Virus record (IMG/VR): IMGVR_UViG_2671180254_000012
Strand: one strand, 5' to 3'
Length of the DNA stretch: 9,669 nucleotides
Source: a virus
Lineage: Duplodnaviria > Heunggongvirae > Uroviricota > Caudoviricetes
Shown one piece after another: positions 243 through 8,625 of this stretch (position 1 is the stretch's first letter; every line of letters begins with the position of its first letter). The notes below the pieces were generated by a model that saw only the letters and a program-made list of their open reading frames with translations, did no database searches and was not told the origin of the DNA. The translations under genes and the position numbers were made by a program.

Positions 243-1325
243 TCATTTTCTCTGGCTGATCTTTACCGGATAACCATCCCGAAGATCAATTAAGTGCTCC
301 GGTTCAGAAGCAAACCATGCATAAGATCCCCACGCCAATTCTGGTATTGCCTTTTTAAAAGGCAGAGCACTTCTGTCCATAAATGCCGTAAGGAATGCAA
401 GATTTTTCTCGCTGAACCCAGCGTCAATAGCCAAATGAGTGAGAGTAACTTTTCGTTCCCTGTTTATAGGCCCATCTGTCGCAACTACTTCAGTGAAAAC
501 TACAAGCATGTCCGAACCCGTTCGGTCCTCTCCCAAATCAATCAAAATAATATCTGGAAGTGCTTTTGAGGCATCAATATTCAGCCCCAATGCTTTTGCC
601 AATACATCATCCTGAGCAACAACTTTATTCCCGGATTCAGACAACCAGAGCACAGTTGGATTCTTAAGAAAATTAGGAGCAAAAACTTCGATGACGGCCT
701 TAGCTATTGTACTTGACGGGCCCGGAGCTAAAGTTCTCTTCTCTCCATTTGGGAAAGTGACGACTACGGCATCAGCAGCAATCACTGCCCCTGATTTCAA
801 TAAACGCAACCTAGCAAGAGCGGCTTTGTTCAAATGATTTTCTTGCCAGGAACTTATTGCACTCAGCAGCGAATCTCCTTCAAGCCCGGCATCAAAGAGT
901 GCTGCAAAAGAGCGATTCAAACTGTAACGAGGACGAGAGGATGTGGTGGGTATACCTTTACGCTCAACAATTGCATTGCAAGGTATTAGGCCATTTTTTA
1001 TAGTTTCATCACGTATTGGCTCACGCGTATTTTCCGCATACCATGCATCAGCAGGCCTTATCTTTTGTTTAGAGAAAGTCATCTTTACCCAGCTTTCTCT
1101 GGACGCATCATCAGTAAGAGCAGCCTGCGAATCTCCCATACTTACAACCTGGCTGGGCCTTATCCATCGCCCCAGCCCCTCAACCGCACCAGCATAAAAC
1201 ATGACAAAAATTGTTTTTGCAGCTATTTCCCGAATTAAATATCCACGATTCTCAGTCCCTTCAGGGAAAATTAATTGTAATCTTTCCCGGATAACATTCA
1301 ATGGGGGAACAACAGGCAGATTCAT
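243..1325 (-). CDS. Type II restriction endonuclease, BsuBI/PstI family
   Basis: 360-aa ORF immediately downstream of and ATGA-overlapping (1322-1325) an N6-adenine methyltransferase gene; the protein resembles the BsuBI/PstI endonuclease family by overall recognition. Not verified by search. Confidence 0.65.
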   Translation of the reverse strand: MNLPVVPPLNVIRERLQLIFPEGTENRGYLIREIAAKTIFVMFYAGAVEGLGRWIRPSQVVSMGDSQAALTDDASRESWVKMTFSKQKIRPADAWYAENTREPIRDETIKNGLIPCNAIVERKGIPTTSSRPRYSLNRSFAALFDAGLEGDSLLSAISSWQENHLNKAALARLRLLKSGAVIAADAVVVTFPNGEKRTLAPGPSSTIAKAVIEVFAPNFLKNPTVLWLSESGNKVVAQDDVLAKALGLNIDASKALPDIILIDLGEDRTGSDMLVVFTEVVATDGPINRERKVTLTHLAIDAGFSEKNLAFLTAFMDRSALPFKKAIPELAWGSYAWFASEPEHLIDLRDGYPVKISQRK

Positions 1326-2796
1326 GCAATCATCACTCCATAGAAACCAGCGATAGTTCTCTCAATAATCCGTCTGTGGACGCCAGCATCAATTAACGAT
1401 TGAATCTCCATCACCTGCTCCAGAGAAGGCAACGGGATTGAATTCAATTCATAGGCCGAAACAGCAACACTTCCGCTTATACACCTGAACGCCCGATCGA
1501 CAACATGCGAATTAAGTAGCATATCAATAACATCAGGGCGAACCGCAGAGAACAATCCGTTTGAATATACAATATTAATATGGTTTTCAACTACTACGCC
1601 ACCAGTTTCATCTATAAATCCCTGAGGTAAAATTGCCGCTAAAATCCTTCTGTCCTGTTCCTTCGATGTTGTCCGCTGAACAAGCACACATTCAGATTTT
1701 GTCACAAGGAAACCCTGTTGTGGGGTTATATCGATATAGGGAACATGATTTTTTCTGTCTGCACTAAAACGAAAACCAGCTGAAGTTATTGATTCCGCCC
1801 AGACTAATGGGTAGCTATTTTTTCCTTTCGTCGTACGCAACTGCGACTTAAATCGATTCCAGACTAACTGACCTGTAGAGACTGAGTATCCCAGATCAGC
1901 TAAACGCGTAGACATCTGTTTTAATACATTAAGAAAACAGGCATCATCTTTAACGCGTGGCAAAAGCCACGTTGCTCCACCTTTTTCTATATCAACATTA
2001 CCTATTTTCTCAATTTTTGCTTTGTTCAACCCCTTAGGGACAAGTGAGGATACCTGGGCCCGAACTTTATGTTCTCCCGCCTTGAATGCTGTCAACATTG
2101 TTTCCTGGAGAACATCGTCAAAGACCCCATCCCTGTCAGTGACGAAATCAAGGGCATACGGAGTAGTTTTTTCGGTCAAAAGGGTTCGCAGCGCGGTGAA
2201 ATACTGCCCACCAAGAAAAGAAGTTGGCGTAAGAAATGCAATAACTCCTGTTTTCTCTTTAACCATGCGAACAGCTAAGTCGGTGAACAATCCATATAGA
2301 TTTGCATGACCAAATAACGAACGAGAATATTTTTCTCTCGTTTTAATATCGAGAGTGACACGTCCGTAAGGCGGATTCCCTACCACAAGATCATAACCAG
2401 AAAATTTATCTTGCTGAAGCGCATCAGCAACAATAATTGTATCTTCAGGCAATCTACGTTTTACCTTTACACATAGTGGCATTAGTACAGATTCGAGCAA
2501 TACCAAACTCATCCAAGCCGCAAATGGATCGATCTCTATCCCCTTTAAACGACGACTGATTCTCCTCAACATCCATTCAGGGGAAGACCCCTTGTCTTTT
2601 TTTAACATTCGAATGGCTACTGGTGCCAAAAATGCACCGCCACCACACGCAGGATCAATAACCGATGCATGAGAAAAATCAACACCAGACTTTTCAGCCA
2701 GGTCCAAGAGACGCGCTACCAAAGGTGGGGGGGTATAGTAAGCCCCCAATTCCGAACGGTAAGCGGATGGCAGCATTACCGTATAAATTGACCCAA
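1322..2796 (-). CDS. N6-adenine DNA methyltransferase, gamma-class (PstI/BsuBI-type M subunit); 5' end lies in the N-run
   Basis: Translation contains GAYYTPPP (motif X), DPACGGGAFL (SAM-binding motif I) and VVGNPPYGR (catalytic motif IV, NPPY) in the gamma-class order. Stop TGA at 1322-1324 overlaps the endonuclease ATG. The N-terminus is hidden by the gap at 2797-3058. Confidence 0.8.
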
Positions 2797-3058
2797 NNNN
2801 NNNNNNNNNNNNNNNNNNNNNNNNNNNNNNNNNNNNNNNNNNNNNNNNNNNNNNNNNNNNNNNNNNNNNNNNNNNNNNNNNNNNNNNNNNNNNNNNNNNN
2901 NNNNNNNNNNNNNNNNNNNNNNNNNNNNNNNNNNNNNNNNNNNNNNNNNNNNNNNNNNNNNNNNNNNNNNNNNNNNNNNNNNNNNNNNNNNNNNNNNNNN
3001 NNNNNNNNNNNNNNNNNNNNNNNNNNNNNNNNNNNNNNNNNNNNNNNNNNNNNNNNNN
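2797..3058. other. Run of N (262 nt), assembly gap or masked segment
   Basis: Directly visible in the sequence. Confidence 0.95.
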
Positions 3059-3140
3059 TGGCCATGGCTTTACAAGTTTGATATCTTTCCAGATTAGAAA
3101 ACTCATTATCTGTAAAAAAATCAAAATGTTGCACATTCAT
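3059..3140 (-). CDS. 5' part of a small ORF of unknown function upstream of the methyltransferase (3' end in gap); could instead be the methyltransferase N-terminus
   Basis: ATG at 3140 (minus) giving MNVQHFDFFTDNEFSNLERYQTCKAMA before the N-run; weak AGGA upstream. Alternative starts at 3176 and 3136. Frame continuity across the gap cannot be established. Confidence 0.3.
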
Positions 3141-3804: not shown

Positions 3805-4227
3805 TCACAGTACCGCCTCCTGAAAATCACCCTGATAGAAAGCCGGTACACGCTGCATAACTTCACTCTTCCGGCACTCGCGACAGATTATGTTCTGATG
3901 TCTGTCGTAGCGGCGTATTTCTCCGTCCGGTAATGACCAGATAAGGTCCGGATCAACCACAGATGGTTTCTTCAGCTTTGCCCTCGAGAGTTTTTTGCGG
4001 GCGTTTTGCCAGTCCTTACGAGCCTGTTCAGACGGGAATAACCCGTAGCCAGAGTTGTATACATCCCCACTGGCAACCAGCTCTCTGGCGAGAACGCTTA
4101 TTAAATATCTTGTCGCCCCGGTTTTAGCTTCCAGTTGTCGTAACGTCTCGCGCCCACTCTGGCGTACGAGTTCAACAACCTGCCCCTTAATTTTTTCCCG
4201 CTCTTCCTGTGTAAATACTTTTGCCAT
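3805..4227 (-). CDS. Hypothetical phage protein with a predicted HTH segment
   Basis: ATG at 4227 with G-rich RBS; the longest ORF begins at a TTG at 4242. HTH-like stretch GRETLRQLEAKTGATRYLISVLARELVASG. Co-oriented with and tightly packed behind the replication genes. Confidence 0.5.
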   Translation of the reverse strand: MAKVFTQEEREKIKGQVVELVRQSGRETLRQLEAKTGATRYLISVLARELVASGDVYNSGYGLFPSEQARKDWQNARKKLSRAKLKKPSVVDPDLIWSLPDGEIRRYDRHQNIICRECRKSEVMQRVPAFYQGDFQEAVL

Positions 4228-4242
4228 AAGCGCCCCCGGCAA

Positions 4243-4968
4243 TCACTTTTCCGACACAATACGACCGGAGGAATCGACAATCTGTCGAACAATATCCCGG
4301 TGCTTGTTCAGCTCCCGCAACGCGGCGCAGACACGCTCCCACTTCTGGACATGACTTTTCGCCCGACGCAGTTCGCGGTTTGCCATATGCAGCGATGGTA
4401 AAACCAGGTCATCCGCTTGCGTTTCGGTGAACGATGGCAACGACTGCACAATGTCCGCCACAGTTTCTGTTTTAATTTCTTCCTGTGTTGCAGCTTCCTG
4501 TACCGGTAACGCAACACCTGCTGGCTGAGGAAAGACTTTACCATCCGTTTCCGCTATGGATGCGGCTTTCGGCTCTGCCGGTAAATCAGCGCCCGGTATG
4601 CAGTACCGAAATTTACCGCCCTGATTCACGCGAATCAGACGCCCTTTGCTGATTGCCATGGCCAGCGATGAATTCGCCCGGCGGGAGGTAATCCCGAACA
4701 TCAGTGCCAGCTCATCCGCCGTTTGTGGGCCATGTTGTTCAATCGCCTCAGTCAGCATTTGCGCTGTCACTTTCGGTACCGGTGACACTGGTTCACTTTC
4801 ACCAGCCTGAATCAGCCACCACATCGAACCCTTGTTATCCGCTTCACCACGGCGCTTCAGTTTCCACAGTTCGTTGACCGCATCTTCACGGCTGATTCCA
4901 AGGCGGGACGCCACCACATGTGAAGAGGCTCTTTTCAGTGCTTTCAGTGCGTCAAATACAGTTTCCAT
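4243..4968 (-). CDS. Hypothetical phage protein with two tandem winged-helix-like domains and a C-terminal helical region
   Basis: ATG at 4968 with GGAGGA RBS 9 nt upstream (minus strand); the track start at 4986 is a TTG. Two HTH-like segments ([24 protein letters not shown] and [31 protein letters not shown]). Starts 22 nt after the DnaC-like stop. Confidence 0.55.
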
Positions 4969-4989
4969 TAAAACATCCTCCAACAAAAA

Positions 4990-5476
4990 TTACTTCACAA
5001 CTCCCGGAAAGCTGACATTTGAACGCCAGCTATCCCAGTTAAACGTCACCCACCGACAACCGTTCATGGTCATGCGGTCCATAATCCTCTCACCAAGAAG
5101 CGTGCTCATTGCGGCATGATTCAGGTTTGTTAACATCCCGACACTGCACAGTGATGCTGTCCGGCGATCAATTATCTGGTGCAATACCACCTGCTCGTTT
5201 TTCGTCTCCCGCTGAATGCCTATTTCATCCAGGACCAGCAAATCAACCCCGCAAAGCTCCTGTAAAAATTTTTCACCGGATTTGCCGTTGTCGTAGCTGT
5301 CATGCAACACGCTCATGACATCAGACTCGGTGACGATAATCACGCTGCGCCCCTTCGCCATCAGCCGGTTACCCATCGCCGCTGCAAGGTGATTTTTCCC
5401 GGTGCCGGTTTTACCGCTGAACACAAAATTCGTGCACCCGGTCATCAGTTCGTCAGCTATGGATTTGGCCTGGCTC
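4990..5476 (-). CDS. DnaC-like AAA+ helicase loader (phage replication protein), N-terminus in gap
   Basis: Walker A FSGKTGTGKNHLAAAMG and Walker B-like LLVLDEIG; the frame stays open upstream of the ATG at 5445 to the N-run edge (SQAKSIADEL...), so the true start is hidden. Confidence 0.75.
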
Positions 5477-5726
5477 NNNNNNNNNNNNNNNNNNNNNNNN
5501 NNNNNNNNNNNNNNNNNNNNNNNNNNNNNNNNNNNNNNNNNNNNNNNNNNNNNNNNNNNNNNNNNNNNNNNNNNNNNNNNNNNNNNNNNNNNNNNNNNNN
5601 NNNNNNNNNNNNNNNNNNNNNNNNNNNNNNNNNNNNNNNNNNNNNNNNNNNNNNNNNNNNNNNNNNNNNNNNNNNNNNNNNNNNNNNNNNNNNNNNNNNN
5701 NNNNNNNNNNNNNNNNNNNNNNNNNN
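5477..5726. other. Run of N (250 nt), assembly gap or masked segment
   Basis: Directly visible in the sequence. Confidence 0.95.
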
Positions 5727-6640
5727 TTCACACAACGCTGGTTGTTCGTGCCGCTTACCGGGAGCAACCAGGGGTTTTCAAAATTCCGGTCCGGCCCAAA
5801 AAACGTCGTCGCTCGCTGAACAAATTCCGTTCCCGCTTTCCCGGTCGCCGCCAGGTATCTCGCGTAACGCCTCACACCATCCAGCATGGTCTCTGGTGGC
5901 ACCCCCTCGCGCAATCTGGCCTTCCAGGCACTGAATGCGGATTTCTTCGGGTTTGCCCCGGCACGCAACGGGTATTCCCGCCAGACCTGTTCGAACACAT
6001 CCGGATAATCCACTCGTCCCACAGGCTGCCCGGTGTTTTCCGGGGCTACCCGATCGGCTTCCCGCTGAATGGCGGAATCGGCTTCAGGCTGCTGCAGTTG
6101 GAGTGATTGCTCCGGCCTTGCGGTCATCACCTGCTGCACAGCGCCCGAATCGGCTTTCAGCGCATACGCTGAATCGGCTTCCGGTGTCGAGCCTGCTGGC
6201 TGACCAGGATTGACGGTCTGAACATCCCCTGCCTGGTTCGTGGCGTTTTTTACGCCATGGACCATAGTGTTTTGATCTTCTTTATCTGTATCTTTATCTG
6301 TATCTGTCGTGACTCGTCGTGACATGTGCGTGACATTTCGTGACGCGCCGTGACAATCGCCATTTTGTTCCCGCTTTCTTTCCCTCTCTCGCTGCGCCCT
6401 CTTGCGCTCTGCAGGAGATTTTGCGGTTTGCGAAATATTGCCGTTGTCCTCTTTAAGCACCTGGCGTTTTTCCCATCCAGTGATTAAATCACCATCAAGT
6501 ACCCGCCCCTGCATCGTCTGCAAAATTGAATCAATTACCTCTTCTGTCACGTCGAGCGCACTTGCCAAATCTTCTGTCGTGACATCAATGTGACCTCGCG
6601 TGACATTTCGTGACGCGCTCACCAGGAGGTGGATATACAC
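5727..6640 (-). CDS. Phage replication initiator (O-like / YdaU-like replisome organiser), both ends in gaps
   Basis: Open frame between two N-runs; N-terminal DNA-binding-like region, low-complexity acidic linker (TDTDKDTDKED, PEADSA repeats) and conserved C-terminal region (DYPDVFEQVWREYPLRAGANPKK...TTFFGPDRNFENPW). Sits between YdaT-like and DnaC-like genes as in Rac-type replication modules. Contains iteron-like DNA repeats. Confidence 0.6.
6053..6181. repeat. Four copies of (GA)ATCGGCTT(C/T) in the initiator linker-coding region
   Basis: Copies beginning at 6053, 6077, 6149 and 6173 (spacings 24, 72, 24 bp); they encode the EADS/KADS peptide repeats of the initiator. Confidence 0.45.
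6281..6354. repeat. Iteron-like array: two tandem 12-mers (TTTATCTGTATC) followed by five helically phased CGTGAC repeats; candidate replication origin
   Basis: 12-mers at 6281-6292 and 6293-6304; CGTGAC at 6308, 6318, 6329, 6339 and 6349 (spacings 10, 11, 10, 10 bp); AT-rich tract immediately adjacent (about 6265-6305). Confidence 0.45.
6579..6618. repeat. Second phased GTGAC array; includes an exact 21-bp copy of a segment of the first array
   Basis: GTGAC at 6579, 6590, 6600 and 6610 (spacings 11, 10, 10 bp); GCGTGACATTTCGTGACGCGC at 6598-6618 is identical to 6328-6348. Confidence 0.45.
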
Positions 6641-6895
6641 NNNNNNNNNNNNNNNNNNNNNNNNNNNNNNNNNNNNNNNNNNNNNNNNNNNNNNNNNNNN
6701 NNNNNNNNNNNNNNNNNNNNNNNNNNNNNNNNNNNNNNNNNNNNNNNNNNNNNNNNNNNNNNNNNNNNNNNNNNNNNNNNNNNNNNNNNNNNNNNNNNNN
6801 NNNNNNNNNNNNNNNNNNNNNNNNNNNNNNNNNNNNNNNNNNNNNNNNNNNNNNNNNNNNNNNNNNNNNNNNNNNNNNNNNNNNNNNNNNNNNNN
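6641..6895. other. Run of N (255 nt), assembly gap or masked segment
   Basis: Directly visible in the sequence. Confidence 0.95.
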
Positions 6896-7249
6896 GACAA
6901 AATCATCAGCGTCTCTCACCAGTCGTTCATGCGTCTCCACCAGTTCCCGAAAATAAGCTGAACTGTGGCTGCGCATTCGAGCCACCAGCGGAGGTGGCAT
7001 TGCCCTTTCGATCGCAGGTAACAACGCCTGAATTTTTTCAACAGCGTCAGGGGTGTCTTTATCCAGCCAACGGAAAATCTTTTGGGTGTTGAGATAAAGC
7101 GTGTTGTGCTTGCTGTCGTTATGCAGAACCGGAAACGTCATTCCCAGTTCGAAATAAACCCTGGTTATTTCAGCTGCCGGAACTTTTTCACCGTCCGGAT
7201 GCGCCCAGGCTTTCATCGCCATGCGGATGTGTTCATGCTTGATTTTCAT
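6896..7249 (-). CDS. ydaT: YdaT-like protein (Rac-prophage-type, proposed CII-like regulator/toxin), C-terminus in gap
   Basis: N-terminus MKIKHEHIRMAMKAWAHPDGEKVPAAEITR... recalled as the YdaT family; ATG at 7249 overlaps the stop of the upstream HTH gene in an ATGA arrangement. Confidence 0.6.
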
Positions 7250-7585: not shown

Positions 7586-7620
7586 TCAAAGTGATTAGCA
7601 ATCTTATTAGAATTGGATGT

Positions 7621-8121
7621 ATGAAAAGAAAATCATTGTCAGACACCGACCTCAACGCCGCCAGAAGACTGAAAGAAATCTGGATGGCAAAGAAATCTCA
7701 GTTGGGATTGACTCAGGAACGTGCGGCGGAAATTATGGGGTTTTCAACACAAGGGGCGGTAAGTCACTACCTAAATGGTCAAACCCCACTAAACCTTGAG
7801 GCTGTTCTAAAGTTTGCTGGCTTACTGAAAGTTCCCCCTGAGTCAATCAGGCCAGACATGGTAGATTTGCTGCAAATTGCAAGGATGTATTGTCGAGAAC
7901 CACAGCAAGATAACATAGTCGCATTACCAGCAGACACAGAACAAACAGAGGATGAACTACCGTTTGCCGTAGAGCCGATGGAACGAGATTTAATCCATAC
8001 GTTCAGAGCTTTTCCGAAAGAAGATCAAGAACACATGCTTCAGGAGATGAAAGATAAAAAAGAATCAATGGATCGTACGGTTGCGCGGTGGTTAGCTGCA
8101 CAAAAAGGCCGTCGCGCCTAA
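7621..8121 (+). CDS. cI-like prophage repressor (RacR/PaaR2-like), HTH XRE-type N-terminal domain, no recognisable LexA-type peptidase domain
   Basis: ATG at 7621 (the track start at 7591 is a GTG); HTH LGLTQERAAEIMGFSTQGAVSHYLNG; divergent to the cro-like gene; no obvious SD, so possibly a leaderless or short-leader transcript as for lambda cI from pRM. Confidence 0.65.
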   Translation: MKRKSLSDTDLNAARRLKEIWMAKKSQLGLTQERAAEIMGFSTQGAVSHYLNGQTPLNLEAVLKFAGLLKVPPESIRPDMVDLLQIARMYCREPQQDNIVALPADTEQTEDELPFAVEPMERDLIHTFRAFPKEDQEHMLQEMKDKKESMDRTVARWLAAQKGRRA

Positions 8122-8140: not shown

Positions 8141-8335
8141 ATGAGTACAGTCCTTTCCCCAATGGTTTCAGAATTTGAGACAGTTGAGCAAGAAAATAGT
8201 TACAACGAATGGCTGCGGGCCAAAGTAGCAGCAAGCCTCGCGGATCCCCGCCCGGCGATTCCGCATGATGAGGTAATGGCGGAAATGGAACAAATTATTG
8301 CCCAAATTGCTGCTGCAACTCACAGAGGTGAATAA
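8141..8335 (+). CDS. paaA2: PaaA2-like antitoxin (ParE-associated antitoxin)
   Basis: 64-aa ORF with AGAGGAGA RBS; sequence ...SPMVSEFETVEQENSYNEWLRAKVAASLADPRPAIPHDEV... recalled as close to E. coli O157 PaaA2; stop TAA overlaps the toxin ATG by 1 nt. Confidence 0.65.
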   Translation: MSTVLSPMVSEFETVEQENSYNEWLRAKVAASLADPRPAIPHDEVMAEMEQIIAQIAAATHRGE

Positions 8336-8625
8336 TGTTACCCGTTTTATGGCTACCATCTGCTCGTGATGATTTGCGCCAGATCGTAGCCTACATAGCT
8401 AAAGAAAATCCCGCGGCAGCACGCAGAATGAAAATTCGAATTGAAACATCCGTTTTGCCGCTCACAGAGCATCCTTACCTGTATCCTCCAAGCGAGCGAG
8501 TTCTTGGTCTTCGTGAAATTGTAACTCATCCTAACTACATCATCCTTTACCGAGTAACAGCATCAAGCATAGAAGTAGTAAATATTGTGCATTCTCGAAG
8601 ACAGTATCCAGGCAAAAACAGTTAA
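8335..8625 (+). CDS. parE2: ParE/RelE-family toxin (ParE2-like)
   Basis: 96-aa ORF MLPVLWLPSARDDL...EHPYLYPPSERVLGLREIVTHPNYIILYRV...; GAGGTG RBS; translationally coupled to the upstream antitoxin. Confidence 0.7.
   Translation: MLPVLWLPSARDDLRQIVAYIAKENPAAARRMKIRIETSVLPLTEHPYLYPPSERVLGLREIVTHPNYIILYRVTASSIEVVNIVHSRRQYPGKNS

Follow-up and report, generated by a model that had tools for sequence, protein, structure and literature searches.

Two phased arrays of a common iteron within a phage replisome organizer gene as a likely bipartite origin of replication

The analysed DNA, a stretch of 9,669 nucleotides from a Caudoviricetes virus (IMG/VR record IMGVR_UViG_2671180254_000012, referred to as the window), carries a replication initiator gene flanked by a DnaC/IstB-like helicase loader gene and a YdaT-like gene. 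Three runs of N are masked in the window (2797–3058, 5477–5726 and 6641–6895, 250–262 nt each). Both ends of the initiator gene lie under such runs, and its coordinates were transferred from the ~97% identical genes of the phages Tritos and Evi; the iteron positions agree exactly with the numbering of the Tritos gene. The beginning of the DnaC-like gene and a portion of a methylase gene are masked as well. An apparent open reading frame of 598 aa (5453–7249) is an artefact, since the N runs fuse the YdaT-like gene with the initiator. The visible 914 bp show ~97% identity to seven E. coli phages, and one database protein (P0007) is identical to the visible part of the initiator. In Tritos and Evi the equivalent region contains a cro-like gene together with genes for a YdaT-like protein of 141 aa and a replication protein of 356 aa. 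The positions of the features are given in Table 1.

Table 1. Genes and DNA elements at the initiator locus of the window
Feature	Position	Strand	Description
DnaC/IstB-like helicase loader	4990..5476	-	directly downstream of the initiator, 5′ end masked; Pfam IstB_IS21, E = 5e-18
Replication initiator (phage replisome organizer, phrog_3729), ~354 aa	~5678..6742	-	coordinates inferred from Tritos and Evi
AT-rich tract, putative DNA unwinding element	6275..6307	.	directly abuts array B; TCTTTATCTGTA tandem repeat
Array B	6308..6354	-	5 iterons, gene nt 389–434, codons 130–146; putative core origin iterons
21-bp repeat copy in array B	6328..6348	-	two iterons and spacer; 10 + 11 = 21 bp = 7 codons
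Single inverted iteron	6546..6551	+	CGTGAC in gene sense, codons 64–66 (DVT)
Array A	6578..6618	-	4 iterons, gene-sense core GTCAC(G), gene nt 129, 139, 149, 160
YdaT-like gene	6824..7249		upstream of the initiator; Pfam YdaT_toxin, E = 5e-9

The genes around this locus differ between close relatives. After the loader the window contains a DUF977 gene (Ren-like by PHROGs) and a DUF1627 gene (3805–4986, minus strand), whereas in Tritos the DUF977 gene directly follows the initiator without a loader gene in between, so the replication module is mosaic even among initiators that are 97% identical. Beside its replication module Tritos carries the DicF sRNA (L001 7441–7493), dicB, ydfD and hokD, and it is thus related to the Qin prophage of E. 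coli K-12, which is defective whereas Tritos is intact. The early region of the prophage in the window also bears a restriction-modification pair on the minus strand (243–1325 and 1322–3136), a BsuBI/PstI-type endonuclease (Pfam E = 9e-45) with an Eco57I/N6-methylase-type protein, which is probably defence cargo. On the plus strand a ParE-family toxin gene (8335–8625, Pfam E = 2e-17) is preceded by a small open reading frame (8141–8335) that could encode its antitoxin; this pair (8141–8625) adjoins a CI-like repressor gene at 7591–8121.

The initiator belongs to PHROG 3729, annotated ‘replication initiation protein’, and is named by PHROGs only: Pfam and NCBIfam at default thresholds assigned no family. 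Residues 1–160 and 200–356 match different PHROG families, which marks the protein as a mosaic of two modules. A Foldseek search against the PDB gave no significant match for the initiator, and a sequence profile compared with the PDB matched only DnaT, via the C-termini of some members of the alignment. The lambda O-type Pfam family was absent from the matches even at E ≤ 1. Below the curated threshold, residues 5–123 align with positions 1–119 of the 121 positions of the Pfam profile Phage_rep_org_N (PF09681; 16.2 bits compared with a gathering cut-off of 23.3, E = 0.01), and this alignment suggests that the initiator is at best a distant relative of that family.

Within the initiator gene the pentamer GTGAC (plus strand; GTCAC in gene sense) recurs in two phased arrays. 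In array A it starts at 6579, 6590, 6600 and 6610, corresponding to spacings of 11, 10 and 10 bp, and in array B at 6309, 6319, 6330, 6340 and 6350 (10, 11, 10 and 10 bp). The sequence-only reading had described a phased run at 6579–6618, a second run with 10–11 bp spacing and an exact 21-bp duplicate shared by the two, and all three observations were confirmed. The pattern GTGAC-N5–6-GTGAC-N5–6-GTGAC matches five times in the window, always in array A or B, and 0.00 matches were expected from 200 shuffles, so that the arrays lie far beyond chance. The hexamer CGTGAC occurs nine times in the 9.7-kb window (3.06 expected), and all nine copies are located in the two arrays or in the single inverted copy. 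Likewise, phased GTCAC triples in the 46-kb genome of Tritos are confined to the initiator gene. Tandem Repeats Finder reported a period-10 array at 6306–6355 that adjoins a 12-bp tandem repeat at 6279–6305. The 21-mer GCGTGACATTTCGTGACGCGC has exactly two copies, the one in array B and one at 6598–6618 in array A, offset by 270 bp or 90 codons. Translation of the minus strand bore out the claim that both copies are read in frame and yield the repeated peptide ASRNVT...VTT: array A spans gene nt 129–164 (codons 43–56) and encodes ASRNVTRGHIDVTT, and the in-frame peptide of array B is ASRNVTHMSRRVTT. The inverted iteron follows array A at a distance of 32 bp, counted downstream from its last direct iteron; a copy at gene nt 192 was found in roughly half of the clade with GTCACG iterons, and its codon 65 (GTG) does not vary among the sequences that have Val there.

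The tract next to array B is rich in AT. In gene sense its repeat reads GATAAAGATACA and encodes the peptide DTDKDTDK. Positions 6275–6304 are the least stable 30 bp of the visible gene, with 27% GC and a dG of -31.7 compared with a mean of -43.2 ± 3.3 for the visible gene. Array A, unlike array B, has no such easily melted flanking tract. In most homologues AT- or purine-rich repeats of the GATAAA or GAAGAA type come after array B. Between the window (DTDKDTDKED) and Tritos and Evi (DKDTDKDTDQED) the tandem repeat at 6279–6307 differs by 6 nt; the putative unwinding element is thus length-polymorphic within E. coli.

Both arrays are conserved as DNA beyond what the protein requires. The initiators of Aeromonas phage pAEv1818 and Pseudomonas phage phi1 share ~70% protein identity with the initiator of the window in the N-domain, and their genes carry GTCAC at the same nt 129, 139, 149 and 160 as well as a second array near nt 389–418. 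A codon comparison showed unchanged motifs next to variable spacer residues (R/Q, N/G, I/A/V, D/T, T/H) and flanking codons that vary synonymously. The iteron motifs fall in all three reading frames, with a unit of 10–11 bp. The three phages differ in array B, which has 3, 4 or 5 units, and its frame is shifted in phi1 while the motif is kept; close relatives have 2–5 units and one family member (L044) has up to 7. Homologues that keep GTCACG at matching positions, with ~70% identity of the protein, come from Aeromonas, Pseudomonas, Bordetella and other hosts. For a comparison of synonymous sites we used 23 non-redundant genes from the GTCACG clade, with a mean nucleotide identity of 69%: pair-identity at third codon positions was 0.956 in the array A motifs (8 positions) and 0.409 at 65 other codons for conserved residues (Mann–Whitney p = 4e-6). 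The synonymous divergence that would be expected under constraint by the protein sequence only was not seen.

The two arrays occupy different parts of the predicted protein structure. An AlphaFold2 model of the N-domain, built on an alignment of 74 sequences, gave pLDDT values of 93–98 in blocks of residues 11–90 with the exception of residues 41–50 (81). Helices are predicted at 2–14, 16–25, 29–45, 56–63 and 67–77, followed by a hairpin (78–88) and a basic helix (110–130), and the remainder is predicted to be disordered. According to this model array A encodes the end of helix 29–45 and the loop 46–55 of a folded winged-helix N-domain, and array B encodes a disordered linker of low pLDDT that follows the basic helix at the junction of the N- and C-terminal modules. 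The predicted helix 67–77, which takes the usual position of a recognition helix, is acidic, a point against the proposed origin model as regards the surface that would contact DNA.

The N-domain has ~800 relatives in the protein collection, under the NCBI name ‘phage replisome organizer’; their C-termini are of several unrelated kinds, including DnaT-like ones. A scan of genomes yielded 64 loci, which come from many Proteobacteria and a few further phyla. Both arrays (nt ~129–165 and ~345–450) are built from one phased 6-mer in 51 of 65 family genes; such a pair of arrays was scored in 2 of 588 control segments and in none of 1300 codon-shuffled genes. The remaining 14 genes were not scored with the same phased 6-mer in both zones. 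The motif differs by clade (GTCACG, GTAACG, CGAACGC, AACGCA or GTGACG, and GCAACG in Ralstonia phage Hennie), with NNN-ACG(C) as the general form. The motif class of array B followed the relatedness of the N-domain: 36 of 56 nearest neighbours were concordant, compared with 20.3 for shuffled labels, and the concordance held when iteron-encoded residues were left out. A single iteron motif is paired with at least four unrelated C-terminal domains, which assigns the specificity to the first ~130 aa of the protein. The arrays are under DNA-level selection, with one motif per genome that varies by clade and fixed places relative to the protein domains.

Array B is present in nearly all family members. 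Inspected examples from the 14 genes just mentioned, such as L044 with its 7 units, L064 and L067, keep array B and have no array A, which is therefore not indispensable to the family. In a Noviherbaspirillum metagenome-assembled genome (L045) the N-domain is 82% identical to that of a CGAACGC-class member, yet array B is of the GTCACG type (ATGTCACGCC three times, gene nt 360–395) and array A is absent. This locus may be a recombinant origin. Alternatively, it may be a natural switch of specificity, or a sign that the clade of the N-domain does not by itself determine specificity. In two further loci (L053, a Serratia metagenome-assembled genome, and L066 from Pantoea) the N-domain is joined to another downstream part with a YYVY..GIS.NPWAR motif; array A is absent there, and palindromic repeats of the ACTACGTAGT type replace array B at gene nt 320–480.

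Array A also varies in length. A 21-bp insertion of 7 codons in E. albertii (L008, gene nt 129–186) and E. coli O157 (P0018) raises its number of iterons from four to six, and in members from Pantoea, Erwinia and Enterobacter the loop is extended in a similar way. Growth is by two iterons at a time, in steps of 10 + 11 bp that preserve the reading frame, and this step also accounts for the length of 21 bp of the exact repeat in the window. The 21-mer corresponds to iteron–spacer–iteron (GTCACG-mAAT-GTCACG), a consensus that was seen in both arrays of other genera. We also examined the helical register between the arrays that would be expected from looping, which gave p ~4e-5 for all genes at a repeat of 10.0 bp and p = 0.006, 0.06 and 0.14 for unique distances at 10.0, 10.33 and 10.5 bp, respectively. 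As the signal is weak after removal of redundancy and confounded by gain and loss of iterons and by shared ancestry, it was not used as evidence for looping.

Three explanations that do not involve iterons of the phage initiator were considered and rejected, on the grounds of reading frames and synonymous sites, of the 7 in 70 loci described below and of a motif that follows the clade, respectively. An internal duplication of the gene, constrained by the protein and without a role of the DNA, would account for an exact 21-bp copy that lies in frame 90 codons away and repeats a peptide. However, the 10–11-bp units occupy every reading frame, synonymous positions are frozen inside the motifs and variable beside them, and spacer residues change where motifs do not. 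The similarity between the arrays is moreover confined to the iterons (72% over 39 nt), and the linker encoded by array B is predicted to be disordered, with weak protein constraint. The duplication offered by the sequence-only reading thus has next to no probability: the shared 21 bp are an iteron pair with its preferred spacer that recurs in other genera, and the peptide repeat is a by-product of the same DNA motif running through two coding stretches. The same reading had proposed operator sites for another regulator such as the YdaT-like protein. Operators for an early-operon regulator (YdaT-like, Cro-like or CI-like) would fit the YdaT-like gene and the helix-turn-helix regulators that lie immediately upstream in the window. 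But tblastn detected a YdaT homologue in no more than 7 of 70 loci, a count limited by tblastn sensitivity, as the gene annotated ‘putative bacterial toxin’ in pAEv1818 was missed; two of the seven (L052 and L053) differ in their motif, and among the GTCACG loci, which include those from Pseudomonas, Bordetella and other hosts, most have no detectable homologue. The motif tracks the N-domain of the initiator rather than YdaT, and array B adjoins the AT-rich tract in the position of a lambda-like origin, which makes operators very improbable. We regard sites for a host factor as equally improbable. Phage origins commonly use host architectural proteins, and the candidate binder proposed here is deduced from sequence. 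Yet prophages of Escherichia, Aeromonas, Pseudomonas, Bordetella, Aquitalea and Stenotrophomonas have GTCACG in common, whereas variants (GTAACG or CGTCAC) occur in the related enterobacterial hosts Pantoea, Enterobacter and Erwinia, so the motif follows the clade of the initiator and not the host.

A different question is what array A does if the initiator binds it. Array A could be a negative-control element, either an autoregulatory roadblock or a site for handcuffing or titration like incA of P1, and would then limit the synthesis of the initiator or the firing of the origin. This would agree with two separated arrays of the same iteron of which only array B abuts an AT-rich tract, and with the dispensability of array A in some family members, as is the case for control iterons in plasmids; in addition, a protein bound to array A inside a transcribed gene must meet RNA polymerase. 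On the other hand, there is no obvious need to limit copy number at the origin of a phage in its lytic phase, and array A is fixed in position and kept together with array B across distant hosts, which fits a structural role. We consider negative control unlikely and favour a cooperative, origin-activating contribution of array A, as judged from its placement and conservation.

The location of an origin within the gene of its initiator is textbook knowledge, and the layout of the lambda ori is not known to include a second, upstream iteron cluster. In lambda and Stx phages the origin lies in the middle of gene O and consists of iterons and an AT-rich tract; Stx-phage ori variants have 6 iterons, and the number of iterons can vary (PMC7466680). 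The region described here resembles the lambda ori in lying inside the coding sequence of the initiator, with repeats beside an AT-rich tract at ~350–430 nt of the gene, where a part at the N-terminus that would bind the origin gives way to a C-terminal part that would recruit other proteins, and also in that extra iterons add residues to the protein and their number is variable. Phased direct repeats inside the initiator reading frame were found in both arrays (4 + 5 units of 10–11 bp). The flanking AT-rich tract and the location in the linker between N- and C-terminal parts apply to array B but not to array A, which lies inside the folded N-domain. In contrast to lambda, the initiator shows no detectable sequence relation to lambda O (no Pfam match), its units measure 10–11 bp with a 6-bp core instead of 19 bp, and a second iteron cluster is located ~230 bp upstream in the region coding for the folded N-domain.

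According to the Pfam description of PF09681, the domain is followed by low-complexity sequence that mirrors direct repeats in the DNA, and these are able to act as an origin. In the window array B and the DKDTDK tract are found directly after the N-domain. In phage SPP1, oriL lies inside gene 38 and combines direct repeats with an unwinding element; the replisome organizer gp38 binds these repeats and also a second, separate repeat locus, oriR (PMC6316719). The initiator of the window is similar to these Gram-positive replisome organizers in that its N-domain aligns end to end with PF09681, below the curated cut-off; as in SPP1, direct repeats and a putative AT-rich unwinding element lie inside the gene. 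The fold that came closest to the N-domain is that of the DnaD N-terminal domain, a possible likeness. In contrast, the second site of SPP1 is intergenic and ~13 kb away, compared with 230 bp in the same gene here, and the family described here belongs to proteobacterial prophages. A third likeness is to iteron plasmids with two arrays. In P1 (incC/incA), F and R6K two iteron arrays flank or overlap the initiator gene, with control iterons in P1 and F. Separated arrays of the same iteron with a phasing of about one helical turn are common to these plasmids and the phage locus, and only one array (here array B) stands beside the unwinding element. However, the phage initiator is not a RepA-type protein with two winged helices, and both of its arrays are inside the coding sequence.

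Taken together, arrays A and B are likely to be iterons for the phage's own initiator that jointly form a bipartite origin. Of the three options raised by the sequence-only reading, this one gained from the DNA-level constraint, the shared motif and its joint change in both arrays, and the other two, duplication and YdaT operators, did not hold. The binder is most likely the N-terminal winged-helix domain of the initiator; we infer this from the presence of the same motif in both arrays of each genome, from a motif that follows the N-domain clade and not the host, and from the combination of one motif with several different C-terminal domains. The core origin would consist of array B and the AT-rich GATAAA tract, by analogy with lambda. 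On the iterons the initiator may oligomerise, the AT-rich tract would melt, and the variable C-terminal domain of the initiator would bring in the DnaC-like loader and the host DnaB. Array A, ~230 bp upstream in the sequence coding for the folded N-domain, would represent an auxiliary cluster occupied by the same initiator, which most likely acts together with array B, the intervening DNA being looped or wrapped, to build a larger initiation complex. As a side effect, occupancy of array A may dampen read-through transcription of the initiator gene.

A further, rather improbable reading is a coupling in which the segment of array A also encodes the part of the initiator that determines iteron specificity, so that site and reader would be the same DNA. 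The residues in which the GTCACG and CGAACGC classes differ cluster in two iteron-encoded segments, the loop 45–56 and the start of helix 3 (65–67). Outside the iteron-encoded segments only positions 28–33 stood out between these two classes, and helix 67–77, the hairpin and the rest of the winged helix are common to both. Alternatively, the loop could passively tolerate whatever the iterons encode, which also fits the class differences, and the loci L044 and L045 count against a strict version of this coupling. If the loop does contact DNA, any change of the iteron would automatically alter the protein that must read it. Such self-referential coupling could drive fast diversification of origin specificity and, as a result, replication incompatibility or immunity among co-resident prophages.

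In the open-access literature we found neither a second array in the coding sequence of a folded N-domain that changes together with the core array, of which an older account in a subscription journal may exist, nor binding or replication experiments for this initiator family. Likewise, the open-access literature on the ‘Eru’ replication types of Stx phages and on replisome-organizer iterons contained no description of the arrays, and all hit records listed for this module are without an origin annotation. The replication module occurs in 2106 of the 5426 complete genomes of E. coli, including the inducible prophages Tritos and Evi and O157-type variants, and this prevalence gives an origin annotation real value. 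Complete E. coli genomes contain up to 4 copies of the region, and many database copies (proteins P0002–P0038) are ‘partial’ and end at contig edges; co-resident prophages that share N-domain and origin probably break short-read assemblies at this site.

The two arrays thus provide a concrete, if putative, origin map for a very common type of prophage and offer a handle on replication compatibility between co-resident prophages. They also represent a natural example of dual coding, in which a predicted protein-binding DNA array runs over a structured domain and shapes its sequence, with the loop length set in steps of 21 bp (7 codons). The co-variation of the motif throughout the family supplies ready-made specificity swaps for the study of co-evolution between initiators and their iterons.
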